From: an uncultured Mycoplasmatales bacterium
Lineage (GTDB): Bacteria; Bacillota_I; Bacilli_A; UBA3375
Direction of reading: 5' to 3'
Assembly (NCBI GenBank): GCA_937936465.1
Contig: CALDDH010000003.1
Span: forward strand, 50,763 to 114,762
Length of the DNA: 64,000 nucleotides
The position numbers and the translations under genes are program-made. This document shows, in pieces, positions 6,248-61,291 of the stretch (the first letter of the stretch is position 1; each line of letters starts with the position of its first letter). The notes beneath the pieces are model-generated. The model saw only the letters and a list, made by a program, of their open reading frames with translations, did not search any database and was not told the DNA's origin.

Positions 6248-7282
6248 CTATTTATTTCTAATTTCACTTGCTGTCATGATCTTATAATTTTTAAAGATTG
6301 CATACCCAATAAAACCAAATAATATAGATACAAAAGCACATAATAATGCTGTCATAAGACCTAGCGCTCCGTTTTCACCAACAACTACAAAGAATCCAGC
6401 AATCGGTGTTGCTATACCTGTGGCTCCAGTATCTAAACCAGCGGCCGAATAAGTGGCGACTAGTGCAACTATAATTCCTGATGCTGCCCCACCCATAAAG
6501 TTAGTTGTGTAAACAGGTATTGGATTTGAACTAATTATATCTGTTTGGGTCAGTGGCTCAATTGCTACAGATATCGTATCTTTACGATCACCAAATTTCA
6601 TCTTATGAAAGAAAACAAAATTCATAAATGACGAACCAAAAACACTTAATGCACCAATTACCATTGGTAGACCTGTAAGTCCAATAATACTTGTTAAAGC
6701 CATTGAACTTAAAGGTGCTGTTGCAACTACAGTAATTACTCCACCTAAAATAAGCCCCATAATGATTGGTGAACCAGTTGATGCAACTAATAAAATCTCA
6801 CCTATTTGCATTAGCATTCCATTGACAATTGGATCAATCATCTCTGTTAGTAAATACATAACTGGGACAACTACAATTATTATTACGATTAAATCTAAAC
6901 CACCTGGTACAACTTTCTCAATATATTTAACACCAAAACTAATTAAGTAACCAGCAATGAAACCAGATAAAATCCCAAATGGAGCGGCAACTATCCCAAC
7001 CATTAATGCATATACTGGTGTTACACCTAATGCAAGCATTACAAGAGATGCTGCTGCAAGTCCACCCATTGATCCACTTGTTGAACCAATTTCAGATAAC
7101 AACTGAATTCCACCAACTTCACCAAAAAGTGAATAGTGAAATGCTTCTACTAAAAACGTTGCACAAGCAGCAGATGCAAGTGCACCCATCGCTTTAAATC
7201 CATAAGGTGCTTTATACGTAAACAATGTAAATAAAGCTAATACCATTAACAATAATATTGTTCCAATTAATACTTCAAACAT
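6248..7282 (-). CDS. polytopic membrane protein, PTS_EIIC_2-like ('PTS sugar transporter IIC'-like) family
   Basis: 344 aa, ~10 TM, Gly/Ala-rich. The segments ATAPLSSMALTSIIGLTG and SNPIPVYTTNFMGGA match my recollection of this family. No HMM was run. Confidence 0.5.
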   Translation of the reverse strand: MFEVLIGTILLLMVLALFTLFTYKAPYGFKAMGALASAACATFLVEAFHYSLFGEVGGIQLLSEIGSTSGSMGGLAAASLVMLALGVTPVYALMVGIVAAPFGILSGFIAGYLISFGVKYIEKVVPGGLDLIVIIIVVVPVMYLLTEMIDPIVNGMLMQIGEILLVASTGSPIIMGLILGGVITVVATAPLSSMALTSIIGLTGLPMVIGALSVFGSSFMNFVFFHKMKFGDRKDTISVAIEPLTQTDIISSNPIPVYTTNFMGGAASGIIVALVATYSAAGLDTGATGIATPIAGFFVVVGENGALGLMTALLCAFVSILFGFIGYAIFKNYKIMTASEIRNK

Positions 7283-43470: not shown

Positions 43471-44247
43471 TTAATTTTGATCAATATTTGATTCATCCCA
43501 TAATTGTTTCCAAAACTTTGTCTTAGACACATAAGATTCATTTGTTAAAGCAAGATTATCATAATTATTTAATTCTGGCTTATGAATAATAGGAACAATC
43601 CTCCTGCCACCTAACAATTCAAAATTAGAGCACTCATAAAAATTAAATCTAGCTTTACCTGGATTTTTTCCTGCTTTAAATACTTTATTTCCATATACAG
43701 ATTTTAAGCCATTGTTAGGAACACACATAACAGATAAATTATATATATCTAGGCTTTGTTCATTATAAAGTATTGTTATAAAATAAGTCAAACATATTTT
43801 TTCTTCTATTTTATTATTATATTTCTTTTTATACACTTCTGGTAAACAAGGTTTATAAAATTCATTTTTTCCATTGTTTTTAACTATTTCACATTCATAA
43901 CTAACTTGATTATTACCAACAAATATTGTTCTTGTATAATCACCGATATTATTTAATGTAACTGTTTTTATATCAATATGAATATATGCATTATATGTTT
44001 CAAAGAATAAATCAGATCCAATTGGTGATGAGTTTGGTTGACCAAATTGATTAAATAACCAATAAAATATTCTTTCAGCACCTACAGCAAATTCAGAAGT
44101 TTCTGATCCTAAAAAATTTACCCAGTCATCTTTAATATATTCTTTAGTTTGAAACCCGTTTAACATTTTTTCTTTATCAAGTTTTAATAAGTATTCAATC
44201 TGTTTTAAATATTCCTTTTCCCAAAATTCAATTTTTTGTTTTTTCAT
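43471..44247 (-). CDS. probable type II restriction endonuclease (PD-(D/E)xK candidate)
   Basis: Overlaps the 3' end of the m5C methyltransferase. GSD...IHIDIKT could be a PD...DxK core. AAAGGAAGG lies 8 nt before the ATG at 44247 (the track start at 44256 is GTG). No family recognised. Confidence 0.5.
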   Translation of the reverse strand: MKKQKIEFWEKEYLKQIEYLLKLDKEKMLNGFQTKEYIKDDWVNFLGSETSEFAVGAERIFYWLFNQFGQPNSSPIGSDLFFETYNAYIHIDIKTVTLNNIGDYTRTIFVGNNQVSYECEIVKNNGKNEFYKPCLPEVYKKKYNNKIEEKICLTYFITILYNEQSLDIYNLSVMCVPNNGLKSVYGNKVFKAGKNPGKARFNFYECSNFELLGGRRIVPIIHKPELNNYDNLALTNESYVSKTKFWKQLWDESNIDQN

Positions 44248-45445
44248 CAATTTCACCTTCCTTTAACATTTTATATATTTCACTTGATATTCTTTCTGCT
44301 AATAAGACTGGAACTGCATTACCAATCTGTGTATACATATTACCAAGGTTACCTTTAAAAATATAATCATTTGGAAAAGTTTGTAAAATTGCACATTCAC
44401 GAGCACTTAATCTTCTTTCTTTATTAATATGTATTTCTGGAGATGTAGCTGTAATTGTGTCACTTGATTTATCCCAATTTGTAATTCTTAAAGATTGTTC
44501 AAATTTTATTTCTTTTTCTTCATAAACTGTTATTTGTTGATCATATTTATCATCAAACTTCAATATTTTTTTTAGTTTTTTCCAATCATCAGGTTTAGGT
44601 ATACTTCCAGACTTATTGTCTTTTCTAAACCAGTGTCCTGCTGTATGTTTATAACCAAAATGCTTATCAATACTATTTGTTGTCCAATGAGACTGATCTC
44701 TATATTTTTTTAGATAATCACATACTTCTGCTTGATTCACTTCATATTTTCTTCCCCAAAATTTACTTTTTACATTTGTTGAAGCTATATGATTATATAT
44801 ATTTTTATTTTCAATAACTTGTAATTCATTTTTTAATGGAGTGTTTGATAAAAATCCAATACTTTCTTTAACTGTTATCAAGGGTAATTTATCCACCCCA
44901 TGGGTTTCAACAGGAAATAAATTTTCTACATTTATTTTATTTCCTATTATAATAACACGCTCTCTTTTTTGTGGAACACCATATTTAGAAGCATCTAATA
45001 ATTTATAATCAACTTTATAACCTAATTTTTGAAAATCATTTTTGATCATTTCAAAAACTTTACCTTTAGAAAGTGATAATATCCCTTTGACATTCTCAGC
45101 AATAAATATTTTAGGTTTTTTATCTTTAATGATCCTAAGCATTTCTTTATATAAGAAATTTCTTTCATCTTCTTCATGTCTATTTCCATTTGCAATTGAA
45201 AACCCTTGGCATGGAAAACCACCAATAACTACGTCAATATTGTCAGGGATTGATGAGCTATCTATTTTTGTAATATCACCTAAATGAATATGATCACCAA
45301 TATTTGACTTATATGAGTCCACAGCTTTATCAAAAAAATCATTTGCCCATACTATCTCAAAGTTATTTTTGATAAAACCTAAATCAAATCCACCAGCACC
45401 TGAAAATAATGAAATTACTTTATATTTTGTTTTATCTACAGCCAT
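44228..45445 (-). CDS. DNA (cytosine-5)-methyltransferase
   Basis: Motif I FSGAGG, IV GFPCQGFS, VI ENV, VIII QKRER, X GNAVP, with a long variable TRD. AAAGGA precedes the ATG at 45445. Confidence 0.92.
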   Translation of the reverse strand: MAVDKTKYKVISLFSGAGGFDLGFIKNNFEIVWANDFFDKAVDSYKSNIGDHIHLGDITKIDSSSIPDNIDVVIGGFPCQGFSIANGNRHEEDERNFLYKEMLRIIKDKKPKIFIAENVKGILSLSKGKVFEMIKNDFQKLGYKVDYKLLDASKYGVPQKRERVIIIGNKINVENLFPVETHGVDKLPLITVKESIGFLSNTPLKNELQVIENKNIYNHIASTNVKSKFWGRKYEVNQAEVCDYLKKYRDQSHWTTNSIDKHFGYKHTAGHWFRKDNKSGSIPKPDDWKKLKKILKFDDKYDQQITVYEEKEIKFEQSLRITNWDKSSDTITATSPEIHINKERRLSARECAILQTFPNDYIFKGNLGNMYTQIGNAVPVLLAERISSEIYKMLKEGEIDEKTKN

Positions 45446-45577
45446 ATAATCGCATCCTTTCATGATAGTTTTATTTTGATTGATAATTAAAATAATAATA
45501 TTAGTATATTTCTTTTATTATTATTTTAACATGTTTCCATCTATTGTTTATGCTTTATTATCTTTTTTAAGTTTTAC

Positions 45578-54950: not shown

Positions 54951-54978
54951 AAAAAAAATTACATATGTTGTATGTAAT
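54951..54978 (-). terminator. rho-independent terminator between the small secreted-protein gene and the ABC genes
   Basis: Minus sense reads attacata-caaca-tatgtaat followed by T8, starting 1 nt after the stop codon. Confidence 0.6.
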
Positions 54979-54979
54979 T

Positions 54980-55267
54980 TTATGCATTAAACCCTGCTGT
55001 ATGGTTAGTTGAATTTGTATATATCTTACATTCTTTTGATCCAATAAAACCAGAGTTTGTGACTTCAAGATATTGATTTTCATTTAATTTTTTTTCAACT
55101 CTCCCAATTTCAGTTGATTTTTCATCTATTACTTGTGCTACAAAATTTGTTGAACCACTCTCATGATTTGTACTATGACAATTATTAAGTCCATTGTAAT
55201 CATACTGCTGACCACTAGCCCAATCACCTGAACTTCTTGATTCACTTTGAATACTATCTGCTTGCAT
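54980..55267 (-). CDS. small Cys-containing protein, probably secreted; possible lactococcin-972-like bacteriocin (true start uncertain, may extend to ~55321)
   Basis: The in-frame upstream sequence codes KKIKKILLLLIFLVISRIVVMQA|DS, which is signal-peptide-like. The mature part has GDWASG...NNCHSTNHESGSTNFV, loosely like the W.YG / S.YHH..K.HS.TV blocks of Lcn972. Lies next to an ABC pair. Confidence 0.4.
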   Translation of the reverse strand: MQADSIQSESRSSGDWASGQQYDYNGLNNCHSTNHESGSTNFVAQVIDEKSTEIGRVEKKLNENQYLEVTNSGFIGSKECKIYTNSTNHTAGFNA

Positions 55268-55363
55268 TACAACTATTCTACTTATAACTAAAAATATTAG
55301 TAATAATAATATTTTTTTTATTTTTTTTCTTTATGTACTATATGGTCCCTATCATATATATTA

Positions 55364-55372
55364 ATTATATCA
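55364..55372 (-). promoter_or_regulatory. extended -10 (TGATATAAT) for the small secreted-protein gene
   Basis: Minus strand reads GTGATATAAT, directly after the tspO stop. Confidence 0.4.
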
Positions 55373-55386
55373 CAATATTATAAGTA

Positions 55387-55830
55387 TTAATTTAAAATAA
55401 TTATTGCTAAATTTAAAATACTAGCAAATGATAACCAAGCAATATATGGAATAATTAAATAAACATATTGTCGATTACGATTAATGTATATTAAATAAGC
55501 TGTTAGTATAATCATTATTAAAATCATCAAGTCAGCTATAACAAACATCTGGAAATTAAAGAAAACAAATGACCAAATTAAGTTTATAATTAACTGAATA
55601 ATATAAATTATAATTGATCTATAGTTTTTATATTTAATAATGAAATATAGAAATGCTCCTAATAAACCATAAAGAATTGTCCAAGCAATTGGAAACACTA
55701 AAACAGGTGGGGCAAAAAATGGTTGATTTAAATTTATATAAAAATTTTCAGATTCAAAAAAAATTGAACTCAATCCTCCTAATAATGGTATTAAAAATAT
55801 ATATAAAATTAACTTTACTCTTTCTAACAT
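55387..55830 (-). CDS. tspO: TspO/MBR (tryptophan-rich sensory protein, CrtK) family
   Basis: 147 aa, 5 TM, LNQPFFAPPVLVFPIAWTILYGLLGAF. Strong AAAGGAG RBS. Confidence 0.8.
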   Translation of the reverse strand: MLERVKLILYIFLIPLLGGLSSIFFESENFYINLNQPFFAPPVLVFPIAWTILYGLLGAFLYFIIKYKNYRSIIIYIIQLIINLIWSFVFFNFQMFVIADLMILIMIILTAYLIYINRNRQYVYLIIPYIAWLSFASILNLAIIILN

Positions 55831-55849
55831 TTTTTCTCCTTTTTTTAAA

Positions 55850-56389
55850 CTAATAACATCTTTGTATTAAAAACTGATTTATAAACTTAGTTAAATTATC
55901 ATATGTATTACCAATAAATATTTCTAGGTTATCTAAATCAGCACGTTTTGAATAGTCAACAAATAGTTCACCATAGCCAAAAAACTCATTGACATGGTCA
56001 TATTTATTTTGATCATCAAATTTTAAATATAGTATAACTGGCTTATCATCTAACCCAAGTGCATATGCCTCTTCCAAATCACTTTCATTAATTTGATAAT
56101 CATCAGGTATTCTTGGGTCTTGAAAGTAACTAGCAACTTCATTTGTAACAATTTCTCCTTCATAATAATCTAAATTATGTTGATCAGCAATTGCTTTGAT
56201 ATTATCTTGATTGTTTTCTGTACATGAATAATCTATTTGATTATTTTCTTTAACACTAGTAATATTATTACTTGCTTTACTGACTGACTGATTAAATTTA
56301 GCATCAAAGAAATTGATGAGCATTATAAATAATAGTGTAGTTATAAATAAAATTAAAAAAATATAACTTATGATTTTAAATATTTTCAT
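55850..56389 (-). CDS. hypothetical N-terminally anchored acidic protein (2 Cys)
   Basis: TM at residues ~5-27, extracytoplasmic remainder. Overlaps the upstream gene by 14 nt. No motif recognised. Confidence 0.45.
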   Translation of the reverse strand: MKIFKIISYIFLILFITTLLFIMLINFFDAKFNQSVSKASNNITSVKENNQIDYSCTENNQDNIKAIADQHNLDYYEGEIVTNEVASYFQDPRIPDDYQINESDLEEAYALGLDDKPVILYLKFDDQNKYDHVNEFFGYGELFVDYSKRADLDNLEIFIGNTYDNLTKFINQFLIQRCY

Positions 56390-57269
56390 TGATGACTCCT
56401 AAGCTTTGATAAATAAATAAACATTTTGAACCTTCTATTTTGATTTGTTTTTTAACTAAATCAAAACCAAGGCCTGTTTGAGATTCTAATTTAAAATAAA
56501 TATTATTAATAATTAAAGTATCATCAGATAATTTTAAAGGTGTTTGATTATCATCATATACTGTTGTCTCTAAATCAATATTGATATCAATAAAATTTAA
56601 AAAACTCAAATCAACATCAACACCATTAATACTTATAGTACCAAAGTGGTAATCGTCATCTACATCAACAAATGGATTATCAAATTGTGGTAGTTTAATT
56701 GATATTTGTGCTTTAATTATTTCAATGATTTGATCACTATTTAGATCATATTTATTTTTTAAAAAGTTTATTTTAGCTTCTATTTGCAAACGATACTCAA
56801 TAATTTTATTACTTATCATATTTTCAATATTTACTATCATAGATTGAATTTTTTTGATTCCTTTATTCTTAAAACTATTTAATTTAGAACTTATTAAATT
56901 ATTGTTTTTAACTTTTAAATTACTTAAAACATTACTTATATTATTAATATAGATAGGTTTGATATTTAATTCATAATAATTTTTTACAGTATTTTTATTT
57001 AATTGATTATTCTCTATTTTATCTTTAATTAAGTCTTGATTATCTTCAGATAATAATAATCCAGCAATTAAGTAAAACTTATTAACAGATATTTGATTGT
57101 TGATCTTTCCATATTTCTCAATATTCTTTTGCATAAATTGTTCATTTGTTTCTTGATTACTTGCTATATATATATCAAAGGCAATCATACTTACAGTTAC
57201 TCCAATAATTAAACCTAATAAATATATAAAGATTTTATTTTTAATTATTTTTAAGCCAAGATTTAACAT
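56376..57269 (-). CDS. hypothetical N-terminally anchored Asn/Ile-rich protein
   Basis: One TM (FIYLLGLIIGVTVSMIAF). Abuts the crtO-like stop. No motif recognised. Confidence 0.45.
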   Translation of the reverse strand: MLNLGLKIIKNKIFIYLLGLIIGVTVSMIAFDIYIASNQETNEQFMQKNIEKYGKINNQISVNKFYLIAGLLLSEDNQDLIKDKIENNQLNKNTVKNYYELNIKPIYINNISNVLSNLKVKNNNLISSKLNSFKNKGIKKIQSMIVNIENMISNKIIEYRLQIEAKINFLKNKYDLNSDQIIEIIKAQISIKLPQFDNPFVDVDDDYHFGTISINGVDVDLSFLNFIDINIDLETTVYDDNQTPLKLSDDTLIINNIYFKLESQTGLGFDLVKKQIKIEGSKCLFIYQSLGVINENI

Positions 57270-57716
57270 TTATCTCCCCACAGATTTAATTATTCTTTGT
57301 ATTCTAACTTTATTATAATAAATAATTATAATAAAAGGTAAATTAAATACTAATAAAAAAACAAAATTAATTATTAAAACATTAATATTTATAAAAAGAA
57401 ATGGCAGTAATCCAACAAATGGAATTGTATGAATTAATAATGCTTTTGCTAGTTCAAGGTCATATTCTTTTAAATATTCTTTTTTTTTTGATTTGATTTT
57501 TGTTTTATCAAATTCAGAAATTGATGGCAATTTTTCTTTATAAATTTTACTGAAACTTAATAATTTTTCCAATTTTTTATTTGTTTTTAATTGGAAACTT
57601 AACTTACTTTTCTTTCTTTCTAAAACCCAATCCAATGAAATGTAAAATAATAACCAATAGATCATGAAAAGGATTATTATTATAATTTTAATCATTAGTA
57701 TATACGCCCTTTCCAT
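57270..57716 (-). CDS. small membrane protein, CrtO-like (glycosyl-diaponeurosporenoate acyltransferase family) candidate
   Basis: The C-terminal LVFNLPFIIIIYYNKVRIQRII resembles the N-[IL]-P-x5-(R/Y)-Y-N-(R/K)-x-R signature I recall for S. aureus CrtO. The central Lys-rich loop and AKALLIH correspond to RAELTHW. AAGGA RBS. An alternative TAATG-coupled start lies at 57695. Confidence 0.5.
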   Translation of the reverse strand: MERAYILMIKIIIIILFMIYWLLFYISLDWVLERKKSKLSFQLKTNKKLEKLLSFSKIYKEKLPSISEFDKTKIKSKKKEYLKEYDLELAKALLIHTIPFVGLLPFLFININVLIINFVFLLVFNLPFIIIIYYNKVRIQRIIKSVGR

Positions 57717-58639
57717 TTTTTCCTTTTAGTAATAATAGATCCAAAAAAGATTAATATAAAGTTTACCAAGTATAATGGCCATAAAAATGTATAAATATAT
57801 TTTGATTCTAAATATTTATTCTCCATAAAAATAAATATAGTTGTAATAATTAAATAATTAATCAATATTTGATGTGCATCAAGAAAAATATTAAATATTA
57901 GTAAAATCATTATAAAAATATATGAAAATAGTAATAATGAATTGATTTTTTTAATGTTTCTTAATCCATAATTTATATTTTTAGACCAACCTTCATAAAG
58001 TTCTCGATAAGACTTATACATATGGATTTTTAAACTTTTACTTTTAAATATTTTTATTTCTCCTACTTTAACAATTTCTTTAGCAAGTTCTAAATCTTCA
58101 ACTATTTGATCTTGAATTATTTTATGCATTCCAACTTCTTTGTATAACTTATCACTTATTAAATAAAACCCTCCAAATAATTCTTGATTTGTATTCAAAA
58201 AATGAAAATTCAAGTATAAAATTTGCTGGAAAAATAGTGAGAAATTTTCTATTAAACCTTGGTTAACAAATTTTGGTATTGTTGTGTATACTTGCTTAGA
58301 TGTTTTTTTATTTACAATTTTTTCTATCTCAGAAATATCAAGGTTGTATACATCTGCATCTAAAAAACATAATTCACTGTGTATGGCATGAGCGTACCCT
58401 TCAATTATCGCATTACTTTTTCCAATTATTTCATTATCAATTTTTTGATCAATTTCAATAATATTGGCATTTGGATAATTATCCTGCATAAATTTCAAAC
58501 TTCCATCAACAGATATATCATCAATTAATATTAATTGATGACCATTATTTAAAATATTATGATAATCAGTCAGTGTTTTATGTAAATTATTTATTTCATC
58601 ACGAACTGGAATAATAAATGTTATTTTTTTATTAGGCAT
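57695..58639 (-). CDS. family-2 glycosyltransferase with a C-terminal TM region, CrtQ-like
   Basis: TFIIPVRDE, LILIDDISVDGS, GKSNA..EG, CFLDADV, MYKSYRELYEGWSKN, ...KKWKGRIY. Each block parallels S. aureus CrtQ as I recall it. Confidence 0.7.
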   Translation of the reverse strand: MPNKKITFIIPVRDEINNLHKTLTDYHNILNNGHQLILIDDISVDGSLKFMQDNYPNANIIEIDQKIDNEIIGKSNAIIEGYAHAIHSELCFLDADVYNLDISEIEKIVNKKTSKQVYTTIPKFVNQGLIENFSLFFQQILYLNFHFLNTNQELFGGFYLISDKLYKEVGMHKIIQDQIVEDLELAKEIVKVGEIKIFKSKSLKIHMYKSYRELYEGWSKNINYGLRNIKKINSLLLFSYIFIMILLIFNIFLDAHQILINYLIITTIFIFMENKYLESKYIYTFLWPLYLVNFILIFFGSIITKRKKWKGRIY

Positions 58640-58640
58640 A

Positions 58641-59120
58641 CTAATCCTTTTGTTTCTTTGCTTGTAAAAAATTATTGACTTCTATCGGTACTAAGTGCTT
58701 TATAGAATGATTAAATACTAATAATTCTTTAACAACACTTGAAGATATGTGAATATTAATTGGATTAGAAAAGATTAAAATAGTTTCTATATTTGAATTT
58801 AAATATTTATTATTATAATTCAAACTTTGTTCAAAACCAAAATCATGATTATTTCTAACACCTTTAGCAATTAAATTAATTTTATTTTTTGTGCAATAAT
58901 CAACAACTAAATCTTCAGTTGTATCAATAAAGACATTTTCCAAATTAACTACTTTGCTAATTAAATCTTTCCTTTCGTTAATTGTTAAAAATTCTTCTTT
59001 ACTAAAATTAATGCCAATTACAATATGAACTTCTTCAAACATTTGACTTAATCGCTTGATAATATCTAAATGACCATTAGTTATTGGATCAAAACTTCCC
59101 GGAAAAACAATCTTATGCAT
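58641..59120 (-). CDS. coaD: phosphopantetheine adenylyltransferase
   Basis: VFPGSFDPITNGHLDII. Confidence 0.93.
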   Translation of the reverse strand: MHKIVFPGSFDPITNGHLDIIKRLSQMFEEVHIVIGINFSKEEFLTINERKDLISKVVNLENVFIDTTEDLVVDYCTKNKINLIAKGVRNNHDFGFEQSLNYNNKYLNSNIETILIFSNPINIHISSSVVKELLVFNHSIKHLVPIEVNNFLQAKKQKD

Positions 59121-59124
59121 TTTC

Positions 59125-59664
59125 TTAACTCCTTTTGTTTAACTGATAAAAATAAAAACTACTTTTACCATATTTTTTAAGTTTATCTTGTTTAAACAAA
59201 TCAAACTCCAAGTCTTTTCTTGAAGAAAACTCTAAAATAACTATTGTATCAGGGTTACAAATTGTAATTAACTTTTCAAATACATTAGTTAATTGATTTA
59301 TATCCATTTCATATGGTGGGTCTAAAAAGATAAAATCAAATTTCTTTTTATTATATTGTAAATAAGTTGTTACATCTTGGTTCATAAATTTAATATTATT
59401 TGGAATTTTTTTACTATTTTCTAAATAACATCTTTTACTTTCTTTGGAGTTATCAACACTTGTAACATCTTTTGCTCCTCTTGATGTGGCTTCAAAACTC
59501 ATTGATAATGAACCAGCAAATAAATCTAAGAAACTTTTATCAATAATATCAAATTGTAATATATTAAATAAACTTTCTTTTGCATTATCCTTTGTTGGTC
59601 TTATTGTATCGCCTTTTGGTGAAACTAATTTTCTTCCCCTTAATTTTCCAGCTATAACTCTCAT
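59125..59664 (-). CDS. rsmD: 16S rRNA m2G966 methyltransferase
   Basis: MRVIAGKLRGRKL, DLFAGS, FLDPPY. Confidence 0.9.
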   Translation of the reverse strand: MRVIAGKLRGRKLVSPKGDTIRPTKDNAKESLFNILQFDIIDKSFLDLFAGSLSMSFEATSRGAKDVTSVDNSKESKRCYLENSKKIPNNIKFMNQDVTTYLQYNKKKFDFIFLDPPYEMDINQLTNVFEKLITICNPDTIVILEFSSRKDLEFDLFKQDKLKKYGKSSFYFYQLNKRS

Positions 59665-59672
59665 AAAACTCC

Positions 59673-59855
59673 TTATTTAATAAATAAATCAATTACTATA
59701 TATATTATTAATCCAATTAATATTATTCGATGAATTAATAATTCAAGTTTTATTTTTTTATTTTTATTTTTCATTTTGACAAGTATTTCACTTAGTACTT
59801 CAATATAATTTAGTTCATCATAGTTTTTCATCTCGATTAACCCCATATTCTGCAA
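59673..59855 (-). CDS. possible small tail-anchored membrane protein
   Basis: 60-aa ORF with a C-terminal TM (IILIGLIIYIVIDLF). Overlaps the ybeY 3' end by 38 nt. No homology recognised. Confidence 0.25.
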   Translation of the reverse strand: MQNMGLIEMKNYDELNYIEVLSEILVKMKNKNKKIKLELLIHRIILIGLIIYIVIDLFIK

Positions 59856-60690
59856 GCAATTTTTCTTGCATTATATTCATTTCCTTTTCTTCTTTTTCAT
59901 CTAAATGATCATATCCTAATAAATGTAAATATCCATGTGTAATTAAAAATAATAGCTCTCTTTTAATAGAGTGATTATATTCTTTTGCTTGAATAAGCAT
60001 TTGAGGATAACAAATAATTATATCACCTAAATAATTTTGTTGCCCATCAACAAACGTTAATACATCTGTAACTTTATTAATATTACGAAACTCTTGATTT
60101 AATTCCTGGATTTTATCATTAGACACAAAAACAATTGACAATTCTTTGCCAAGTTGTTTCATACAAACTTCCAAGTACTTCACATATCCATTTATTTCAA
60201 TTTCATCAAATTGATATTCATATTGATTAACAATATTGATATGAGTCGCATTGTGTTTACAATCAATATTTTTACAAACATGGCACTTAAGTTCTTTACA
60301 TTGATTACAACAACCAAAAAATTCAATTTTCGAATCATGAACTAAATAATTATACTTATTTTTGATTAATACATCTAAACAATTTAAACCAGGTACATCA
60401 ACGTTATAAAACTGATGACAAGTAGTACATATAAAATGACCATGAATATTACCATTATATTCAAAGAATTTTGTTGAACCAACGTAAAATTCCTTAACAA
60501 TTTTTTCATTAATTAAAACTTCTAAATTATTATACATCGTAGAAATATTTCCTTCACCCGTTAATTGCATTAGATTATCAAAATCATAATGTTCTTCAAT
60601 GTTACTAGTAAAAATTTCAATTAATTTCTTACGTGATGCAGTTAACCTGTATCCTTTGCCTTGAAGACTTCTTTCAATTTTATGCGGCAT
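59818..60690 (-). CDS. ybeY: Fur-family regulator fused to YbeY endoribonuclease
   Basis: N-terminal half: GYRLTASRKKLIEIF, STMYNNLEVLINEKIV, HGHFICTTCHQF, GCCNQCKE. Linker: LKCHVCKNIDCKH. C-terminal half: TDVLTF and HGYLHLLGYDH. AAAGGAGG lies 4 nt before the ATG at 60690 (MPHKIERS). Confidence 0.8.
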   Translation of the reverse strand: MPHKIERSLQGKGYRLTASRKKLIEIFTSNIEEHYDFDNLMQLTGEGNISTMYNNLEVLINEKIVKEFYVGSTKFFEYNGNIHGHFICTTCHQFYNVDVPGLNCLDVLIKNKYNYLVHDSKIEFFGCCNQCKELKCHVCKNIDCKHNATHINIVNQYEYQFDEIEINGYVKYLEVCMKQLGKELSIVFVSNDKIQELNQEFRNINKVTDVLTFVDGQQNYLGDIIICYPQMLIQAKEYNHSIKRELLFLITHGYLHLLGYDHLDEKEEKEMNIMQEKLLAEYGVNRDEKL

Positions 60691-60700
60691 AATTCCTCCT

Positions 60701-61291
60701 TTAAATTTTTTGTGCACTTTCAATCGATTTAATCAATGTTATTTCATCAAGATATTCAAGTGATGATCCGACCGGAACACCTTGAGCCATTTTAGAGAAA
60801 TTTAAATTATATTCAACTAATTTATGTCTTAAATAAGCACTTGTAATCTCTCCTTCATTTGTTGATGGTAAGACTAAAACTATTTCTTGATATTTATTAT
60901 CTTTTATTTTATCCTTTAATAATTGTAAATTTAAATCCTTTTCAGTTAATCCATTAATTGGATCAATAATTCCACCAAGAACAAAATAATAATAAATACC
61001 TGGCATGACATTTTCAATTTTTAAAATATCTTTAGCTTTTGCTACTAACACTAGTTTATCATGATTACGATCATGATCTAAACATATATAACAAATTTCA
61101 TCTTCACTATAACCCTGACATTTGGAACAACGATTAATTTCTTTAATAGCATTCATTGCTTCAATTAATAGATTTATATTATCTTGATTAGTTTCAATCA
61201 AATCAAAAGCATATCTACTTGCTGTCTTTTCACCGACTCCCGGTAATATCTTAATTGCTTCCACTAATTGTTGAATTTTTTTAATTTCCAT
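60701..61291 (-). CDS. recR: recombination protein RecR
   Basis: LPGVGEKTASRYAF HhH, C4 zinc finger CSKCQGYSEDEICYIC, Toprim. Confidence 0.94.
   Translation of the reverse strand: MEIKKIQQLVEAIKILPGVGEKTASRYAFDLIETNQDNINLLIEAMNAIKEINRCSKCQGYSEDEICYICLDHDRNHDKLVLVAKAKDILKIENVMPGIYYYFVLGGIIDPINGLTEKDLNLQLLKDKIKDNKYQEIVLVLPSTNEGEITSAYLRHKLVEYNLNFSKMAQGVPVGSSLEYLDEITLIKSIESAQKI

Follow-up and report, generated by a model that had tools for sequence, protein, structure and literature searches.

Within the 64,000-nucleotide stretch of DNA analysed here, which we refer to as the window (contig CALDDH010000003.1 of assembly GCA_937936465.1, from an uncultured Mycoplasmatales bacterium), a string of closely spaced genes encodes a putative lipid glycosyltransferase of family GT2, a small membrane protein of the CrtO acyltransferase family, two membrane-anchored proteins that we call X and Y, and a TspO protein. 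An earlier note on this DNA had described these five open reading frames (ORFs) and read them together as a module for the tailoring and handling of a carotenoid glycoside ester; all five were recovered on the minus strand at the positions it gave. Both enzymes belong to known families, of which they are new and divergent members, and the four-gene arrangement in which they are joined by an orphan pair of surface proteins is itself new, in a small uncultured clade.

The GT2 gene (57695..58639, minus strand) encodes a protein of 314 amino acids that matches PF00535 (E 7e-8) and is classed as a lipid glycosyltransferase of the CrtQ/HpnB/CruC type, with a cytoplasmic GT-A domain followed by two C-terminal transmembrane (TM) helices. 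The sequence blocks named in the earlier note are real; in an alignment of 11 sequences of the family they sit at invariant positions: P11, E15, G73-K74, F92/D94-A95-D96, M207-Y208, G217, K220 and W309/G311/R312. The protein carries the DxD, RMY...GW.K and C-terminal WKGR.Y motifs of a CrtQ-type enzyme within the GT-A group. The best NCBIfam equivalog models were those of terpenoid glycosyltransferases, the hopanoid-associated HpnB (TIGR03469) and, for the carotenoid enzymes CruC/CruG, the model CruG (NF045692). Both cover the full length of the protein and both score far under their cut-offs, at 45 against 379.25 bits for HpnB (residues 5-314 on model positions 45-384 of 386) and 32.1 against 600 for CruG; judged by these scores, GT2 is not a member of either specific family.

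Close relatives of this glycosyltransferase are few. A search of 5.8 billion proteins returned one at 49% identity, and all further ones are at most 28% identical, among them a Halobacillus glycosyltransferase and proteins annotated by JGI as ‘chlorobactene glucosyltransferases’. Only one solved structure, that of ceramide glucosyltransferase (GT21; PDB 26qs, 26qf), aligns past the N-terminal GT-A half (profile positions 9-253). Like the activity proposed for GT2, ceramide glucosyltransferase acts on a lipid; the match is remote (E 2e-6), and the enzyme differs in having a eukaryotic acceptor and another membrane topology.

The next gene (57270..57695, minus strand) encodes a membrane acyltransferase of the CrtO family (PF18927), with 141 amino acids counted from a TAATG start. 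The ATG at 57695 is likelier to be its start than the ATG at 57716, which would give 148 amino acids, because the NCBI version (141 amino acids) and the homologues begin there. The protein scores 45.2 bits against a gathering threshold of 27.3 over model positions 11-122 of 123, and its relatives on three related contigs (L002, L004 and L093) are likewise annotated as PF18927. Compared with CrtO-like genes of carotenoid clusters, the residues K53, L56, P57, K64, E81, H89, N118, P120, I122 and N128 are invariant, and the last four of these coincide with the N-L-P...Y-Y-N-K tail that had been noticed earlier. Searches with hidden Markov models (HMMs) thus place both proteins in the families of CrtQ-type and CrtO-type enzymes and, as far as sequence can tell, the CrtQ/CrtO reading of the pair is right at the family level.

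The S. aureus staphyloxanthin pathway, of which CrtQ and CrtO reportedly catalyse the last two steps within a crtOPQMN operon (Pelz et al. 2005), is one of the closest known systems. Our comparison with it was made through homologous proxies taken from the clusters of Bacillus, Marinilactibacillus and Athalassotoga, and the roles of S. aureus CrtQ and CrtO and of the enzymes of staphyloxanthin-type clusters are taken from published work (PMC9598406). As in S. aureus, the GT2 has C-terminal TM helices, and its gene precedes that of a small membrane acyltransferase of PF18927. The glycosyltransferases have the DxD, ED, RMY...GW.K and WKGR.Y motifs in common, and the acyltransferases K..LP, E, H, N.P.I and YN(K/R); the order GT2-CrtO is also that of other bacteria carrying the pair. 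Unlike S. aureus, the window has no crtM, crtN or crtP nearby, its GT2 has no N-terminal TM helix, its CrtO is divergent with a short first loop, and X and Y are added to the operon.

A wider view of such pairs comes from a pattern scan of 185,579 species genomes, which yielded 80 named GT2 loci whose glycosyltransferases are 21-28% identical to that of the window. A CrtO-like gene lies immediately 3' of GT2 in eight of the 80, and six of these eight pairs adjoin Amino_oxidase-type desaturases, with SQS_PSY and Caroten_synth genes also present at several. The carotenoid clusters concerned are those of Marinilactibacillus kalidii (L056), Bacillus sp. CGMCC 1.16541 (L036) and Athalassotoga (L006, L033), together with those of a Thermodesulfobacteriota metagenome-assembled genome (MAG; L076) and a Verrucomicrobiaceae genome (L005). 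They resemble the window in the clade of their GT2 and in the CrtO-like gene directly downstream; they differ from it in their desaturases, SQS_PSY, Caroten_synth and, often, photolyase genes, and in having no X, Y or TspO.

These relationships are reflected in a distance-based neighbour-joining tree of 85 GT2s with 200 bootstraps. The window GT2 belongs, with three close relatives, to a clade of 14 members recovered in 162 of the 200 replicates, a figure that may understate the support, as some replicates gave undefined distances. The clade takes in every CrtO-paired GT2 and almost nothing else. The glycosyltransferase therefore groups, as the CrtQ reading of the earlier note would have it, with CrtO-paired enzymes, which in named genomes come mostly from carotenoid clusters, and not with non-carotenoid enzymes.

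Two of the named GT2-CrtO pairs have no carotenoid neighbours. They come from Dehalococcoidales and Desulfacyla MAGs (L016, 372-2797, and L071, 2849-3907) and lie beside ABC-2/ABC transporter genes. An ABC transporter is also found near the X-Y/TspO genes in the window and on contig L092. The presence of such transporters near GT2-CrtO or X-Y/TspO may hint at export of a product.

Downstream of the two enzymes lie X (56376..57269, minus strand; 297 amino acids) and Y (55850..56389, minus strand; 179 amino acids), each with an N-terminal membrane anchor and described here from family alignments of nine sequences for X (alignment A5) and ten for Y (A4). In X, the anchor is followed by a juxtamembrane NKxY(I/L)xAGxLL motif, a helical stalk and, at the C terminus, an acidic, conserved domain some 100 amino acids long with the signature DxDDDYHF...DLSFLN..DL.ID...GVINExI. 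The length of X ranges from 297 to 667 amino acids across lineages, and it is the stalk that varies. The ectodomain of Y, about 140 amino acids, is of an alpha/beta type with two conserved cysteines, C56 and C178, and a C-terminal Q.CY; the two cysteines suggest that it is probably disulfide-bonded. From hydropathy and flanking charges (the positive-inside rule), we infer that both proteins are single-pass and oriented N-in/C-out.

The longest X, of 667 amino acids, is encoded on contig L086 (848-2851, plus strand). Its stalk contains at least ten degenerate repeats of the form (Y/F)(L/I)xS(E/D)EFKxL(I/V)INYL, which are undetectable as tandem repeats in the DNA. Matches of the X stalk to apolipoproteins, SNAREs and designed bundles in the PDB were taken as compositional helical similarity and not as homology.

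X and Y are adjacent on every contig that carries either of them. At their junction (56376..56400, minus strand) the genes overlap by 14 nucleotides in two frames, with X ending in ...INENI* and Y beginning with MKIFK..., and an AGGAG lies inside the (L/I)GV codons of X. An overlap of exactly 14 nucleotides is conserved in all ten loci. A GGAG-type motif stands 8-9 nucleotides upstream of the Y ATG in eight of the ten, encoded in the (L/I)GV(I/V)NE of X, and the ribosome-binding motif is found in degenerate form in L085/L086 (AAGGGA) and in L092 (GGAAG). X and Y are thus a previously undescribed obligate pair, present in about nine low-GC lineages.

The pair is also isolated in sequence space. 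An exhaustive search with the Y profile among 1.84 billion representatives found eight clusters only, and X likewise has no further relatives. Pfam, NCBIfam, PDB, PHROGs and PADLOC returned only chance-level or compositional matches to either protein. JGI metagenome contigs had no match to the Y or X profiles, and IMG/VR, in which X was not searched, had none to the Y profile. An origin of X-Y in phage or defence systems was considered and ruled out, as neither PHROGs nor PADLOC gave a match.

The association of X-Y with the enzymes can be followed on the contigs of relatives. The order GT2-CrtO-X-Y of the window recurs in L002, L004 and L093/L094, with proteins that are 31-54% identical and flanks that differ, and the CrtO/X junction abuts or overlaps in each of these four cassette lineages. 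Conservation of the two unknown proteins and their co-occurrence with GT2-CrtO, which would follow from the earlier proposal, are in this way borne out in four lineages. Counted over the six lineages with visible upstream context, X-Y stands 3' of GT2-CrtO in four and alone in two; the remaining X-Y contigs end inside X. At the 80 named GT2 loci there is no X-Y.

In the L093 lineage a further gene accompanies the cassette. It encodes a soluble, K/N/Y-rich protein of 542 amino acids without a Pfam family (L093 6063-7691, plus strand; also in L094) and overlaps the start of GT2 by 11 nucleotides. It may represent a fifth component of the cassette, specific to this lineage.

With moderate confidence, we interpret GT2 and CrtO as a two-enzyme lipid-tailoring pair to which X-Y is a clade-specific addition. 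In the proposed mechanism, GT2 would move a hexose from a nucleotide sugar onto a hydrophobic membrane acceptor at the cytoplasmic face; the GalU-type nucleotidyltransferase encoded in the window could provide UDP-glucose. The CrtO-family protein would then esterify the sugar with a fatty acid, by analogy with CrtQ and CrtO in staphyloxanthin synthesis. By homology, the likeliest acceptor is a carotenoid or some other acid or alcohol of terpenoid type, whose biosynthetic genes would lie beyond the window; we hold this assignment at somewhat less than even odds. X and Y would be co-operonic with GT2-CrtO, and their synthesis would be translationally coupled through the 14-nucleotide overlap and the internal ribosome-binding site, so that they most likely assemble into one complex at the membrane's outer face. 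Within it, X would carry its conserved C-terminal domain on a helical stalk of variable length, and Y its small domain. Going by gene order, the lipid made by GT2-CrtO may serve X-Y, or X-Y may handle it.

A bolder form of this proposal is that X-Y is an outer-face apparatus that accepts, retains or displays the acyl-glycosyl lipid, which may be a carotenoid glycoside ester; we consider this improbable on present evidence. If it were true, no dedicated handling component would have been described before X-Y for bacterial glycolipids of this class, and the stalk of X would set the distance of the head domain from the membrane.

Several observations weigh against the interpretation of GT2-CrtO as a tailoring pair, possibly for carotenoids, with X-Y as its partner. 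An N-terminal TM helix is absent from the GT2s of the window, L002, L004 and L093; it is present in the relatives L036, L056, P0003-P0007, P0009 and P0010. In the CrtO proteins of the clade the TM1 ‘IH’, the ‘KKWK’ and the ‘QRYNR’ are altered, and loop 1 is shortened. Together, the missing helix and the divergent CrtO mean that the substrate may have changed. Genes for the carotenoid backbone were sought by tblastn in the 64-kb window and about 70 kb of related contigs, the nine queries being synthase, desaturase and Caroten_synth sequences of related carotenoid loci. Nothing was found below E 0.007 in the window, L002 and L004, or below E 0.01 in L085-L094. The absence of crtM, crtN and crtP from the window, already remarked in the earlier note, is therefore confirmed and extends to the related contigs, and such a crt-free neighbourhood departs from the usual clustering in named genomes. 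As to X and Y, family searches, PDB searches and models gave no structural or homology evidence for their function, and AlphaFold2 models built from two-sequence alignments were too poor to use (mean predicted local distance difference test scores of 35.6 for X and 48.5 for Y). The pair also occurs on contigs without GT2 or CrtO, following a lipoate-protein ligase gene in L086 and an Rrf2 regulator in L090/L091.

The junctions between the genes, which the earlier note had described as tightly coupled, deserve separate comment. The genes do overlap or abut as it described: GT2 and CrtO overlap, CrtO and X abut (TAA, then ATG), X and Y share their 14 nucleotides, and a gap of 19 nucleotides containing an AGGAG separates Y from TspO. 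Such spacing is ordinary here, however, as 22 of the 60 same-strand neighbour pairs in the window overlap or lie at most 1 nucleotide apart. Tight spacing is the norm of this genome, and on its own it carries little weight; this, too, counts against reading the four genes as a functional unit.

Two alternatives can be set beside this interpretation, and they are not mutually exclusive. The first is that the acceptor is not a carotenoid, and that GT2-CrtO was recruited to make an acylated glycolipid for the cell envelope out of some different lipid of the membrane, such as a polyprenol, a lipid of the diacylglycerol type, or a terpenoid or fatty acid, with X-Y as an envelope partner. All four cassette copies are without nearby crt backbone genes, against six of the eight named pairs that have them, and the two named crt-less pairs adjoin ABC-2/ABC transporter genes. 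The helix-less GT2 and divergent CrtO of the clade fit the same idea. Furthermore, the L093 cassette shares its contig with murG, murB, divIB and a CDP-alcohol phosphatidyltransferase, and, among relatives of known structure, ceramide glucosyltransferase alone spans most of the catalytic region. Set against this, GT2 groups with the carotenoid-associated, CrtO-paired subfamily, PF18927 was built on a carotenoid enzyme, and crt genes could sit elsewhere, since only part of the genome is visible. On balance we regard a non-carotenoid acceptor as a possible but doubtful explanation.

The second alternative concerns X-Y, which might be a free-standing surface pair, functionally unrelated to GT2-CrtO, that lies downstream of it by chance in part of the clade. 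The stand-alone pairs of L086 and L090/L091 and the absence of X-Y from all 80 named loci would be expected under this explanation, as would the ordinary overlap of genes in this genome. The forms are also interleaved in sequence: the stand-alone Y of L090 is 47% identical to the window Y, compared with 39-46% for the cassette-linked ones. The conservation of the cassette speaks the other way, in that GT2-CrtO-X-Y and its coupled CrtO/X junction are kept in four lineages at 31-54% identity amid different flanks, and drift alone would rarely preserve such an order. We think it rather unlikely that the two pairs of genes are unrelated.

The tailoring pair with its added surface proteins could be of wider significance. 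To our knowledge, CrtQ/CrtO-type enzymes occur almost only in pigment clusters. To find the pair away from backbone genes and joined to two surface proteins could mean that acyl-glycosyl chemistry is applied to another lipid; alternatively, it could point to missing downstream steps that place carotenoid glycolipids in the envelope. X-Y itself is a clean orphan family, with few clusters, strictly conserved coupling and an anchor-stalk-head architecture, and this makes it tractable for expression studies and for structure prediction from the alignment built here.

The TspO gene (55387..55830, minus strand) is the fifth of the ORFs first described, and its assignment is confirmed by the PF03073 HMM (E 8e-29; 100.7 bits against a gathering threshold of 24). 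The protein has five hydrophobic segments, read as five TM helices, and PDB TspO chains match it down to E 2e-15. TspO/CrtK reportedly lies in the photosynthesis gene cluster of Rhodobacter (Yeliseev and Kaplan 1995). The window protein belongs to the same family, PF03073; it differs in scoring 68 against an alphaproteobacterial equivalog cut-off of 180, and in having no photosynthetic or carotenoid cluster around it. A CrtK-like role, as the earlier note had proposed, finds no support in conserved linkage. The window is the sole case of TspO standing immediately after Y; genes other than TspO follow Y in L002, L093/L094, L090/L091 and L085/L086, and there is no TspO within 10 kb of any of the 80 named GT2 loci. 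In L092 a TspO 52% identical to that of the window lies 5.8 kb from X-Y, past an oppositely oriented ABC transporter. The expected co-occurrence of TspO with the cassette in relatives thus largely fails.

The isoprenoid genes dxr and ispF, of the methylerythritol phosphate (MEP) pathway, had also been cited in favour of carotenoids. The order uppS-cdsA-dxr-...-rseP-proS is a usual housekeeping arrangement in Bacillota, and dxr sits within it in the window; ispF, too, is in an ordinary housekeeping position. The MEP pathway is needed for undecaprenyl phosphate in a walled bacterium, so these genes say nothing about carotenoids. Within this arrangement, dxr and rseP are separated by an inserted gene for a membrane protein of the EIIC_2 family of phosphotransferase systems (6248-7282, minus strand; PF13303, E 3e-50).

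The full model of the earlier note, in which GT2, CrtO, X, Y and TspO form one carotenoid glycoside-ester module with a CrtK-like TspO and feeding by the MEP pathway, can draw on the 19-nucleotide spacing of TspO from Y, on the TspO of L092 and on dxr and ispF within the window, but is very unlikely given the other genes that follow Y in the relatives, the named loci without TspO, the housekeeping setting of dxr and the window without crt backbone genes. TspO, the MEP genes and the coaD and rsmD genes upstream of the cassette are neighbours or co-transcribed housekeeping genes that lie outside the module.

The string of co-directional genes is longer than was first described, and extends upstream beyond GT2 through coaD and rsmD. 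The first visible member is an rsmD-like methyltransferase gene (59125..59664, minus strand; PF03602 Cons_hypoth95, E 1.5e-43), separated by 4 nucleotides from a coaD-like gene of the cytidylyltransferase family (58641..59120, minus strand; PF01467, E 1.6e-16). A single nucleotide lies between the coaD stop and the GT2 start (junction ‘gattag t atg’). At the other end, downstream of TspO, a 95-amino-acid ORF (54980..55267, minus strand), for which related contigs have no homologue, is the last before an AU-rich 11-bp hairpin with a U run (54951..54981, minus strand; fold energy -7.1 kcal/mol, z -2.84). This hairpin, the only strong terminator-like one of the string, is its probable intrinsic terminator; a GC-dependent terminator scan missed it. 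In frame upstream of the ATG of the 95-amino-acid ORF there is a stretch resembling a signal peptide, KKIKKILLLLIFLVISRIVV, that has no canonical start codon (54980-55372, minus strand), and an extended -10-like motif, TGATATAAT, can be read from the sequence at 55364-55372, upstream of the same ORF. A promoter scan of the window gave 78 sites where 76 were expected, which is uninformative in AT-rich DNA, and an Rfam search of the window found no RNA family.

The window as a whole has a G + C content of 27%, carries nearly every gene on the minus strand and uses the standard genetic code, with TGA as the stop codon in two of 24 genes checked. The genes it carries are those expected on the chromosome of a low-GC bacterium with a cell wall, and their order points to Bacillota. 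HMMs confirm, among others, uppS, cdsA, dxr, ispF, the GalU-type nucleotidyltransferase, a G5-transglycosylase, a G5-M23 peptidase and RecR; parA/parB, gidA/gidB and dnaB were assigned from translations only. The G + C content at third codon positions (GC3) is 0.12-0.15 in the cassette genes against a window background of 0.145. The lower G + C of the cassette comes from codon positions 1 and 2, and so reflects amino-acid composition. With GC3 at background, recent horizontal acquisition was ruled out as its cause, and the cassette is taken as native.

Other features of the window lie outside the gene string. One ORF of 301 amino acids (59818-60723, minus strand) fuses two domains, one of the Fur family (residues 23-135; PF01475, E 2.7e-13) and one of the YbeY endoribonuclease type (residues 190-292; PF02130, E 1.4e-37). 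The fusion is also called on an independent Logan contig (L001), and this combination of domains looks unusual. In another example, four tandem paralogues of 204-253 amino acids (22618-25741, minus strand) have ‘TAGHCF’ and ‘SGAP’-type motifs in common. Three of them begin with a hydrophobic, signal-like sequence, which the 204-amino-acid one does not have, and two give sub-threshold matches to Trypsin; the four may be secreted serine proteases that form a divergent family. Finally, an ORF of 261 amino acids without a family lies upstream of a gene for a C-5 cytosine DNA methyltransferase (PF00145, E 2.5e-82) and overlaps it (43471-45463, minus strand); the two are probably a type II restriction-modification pair.

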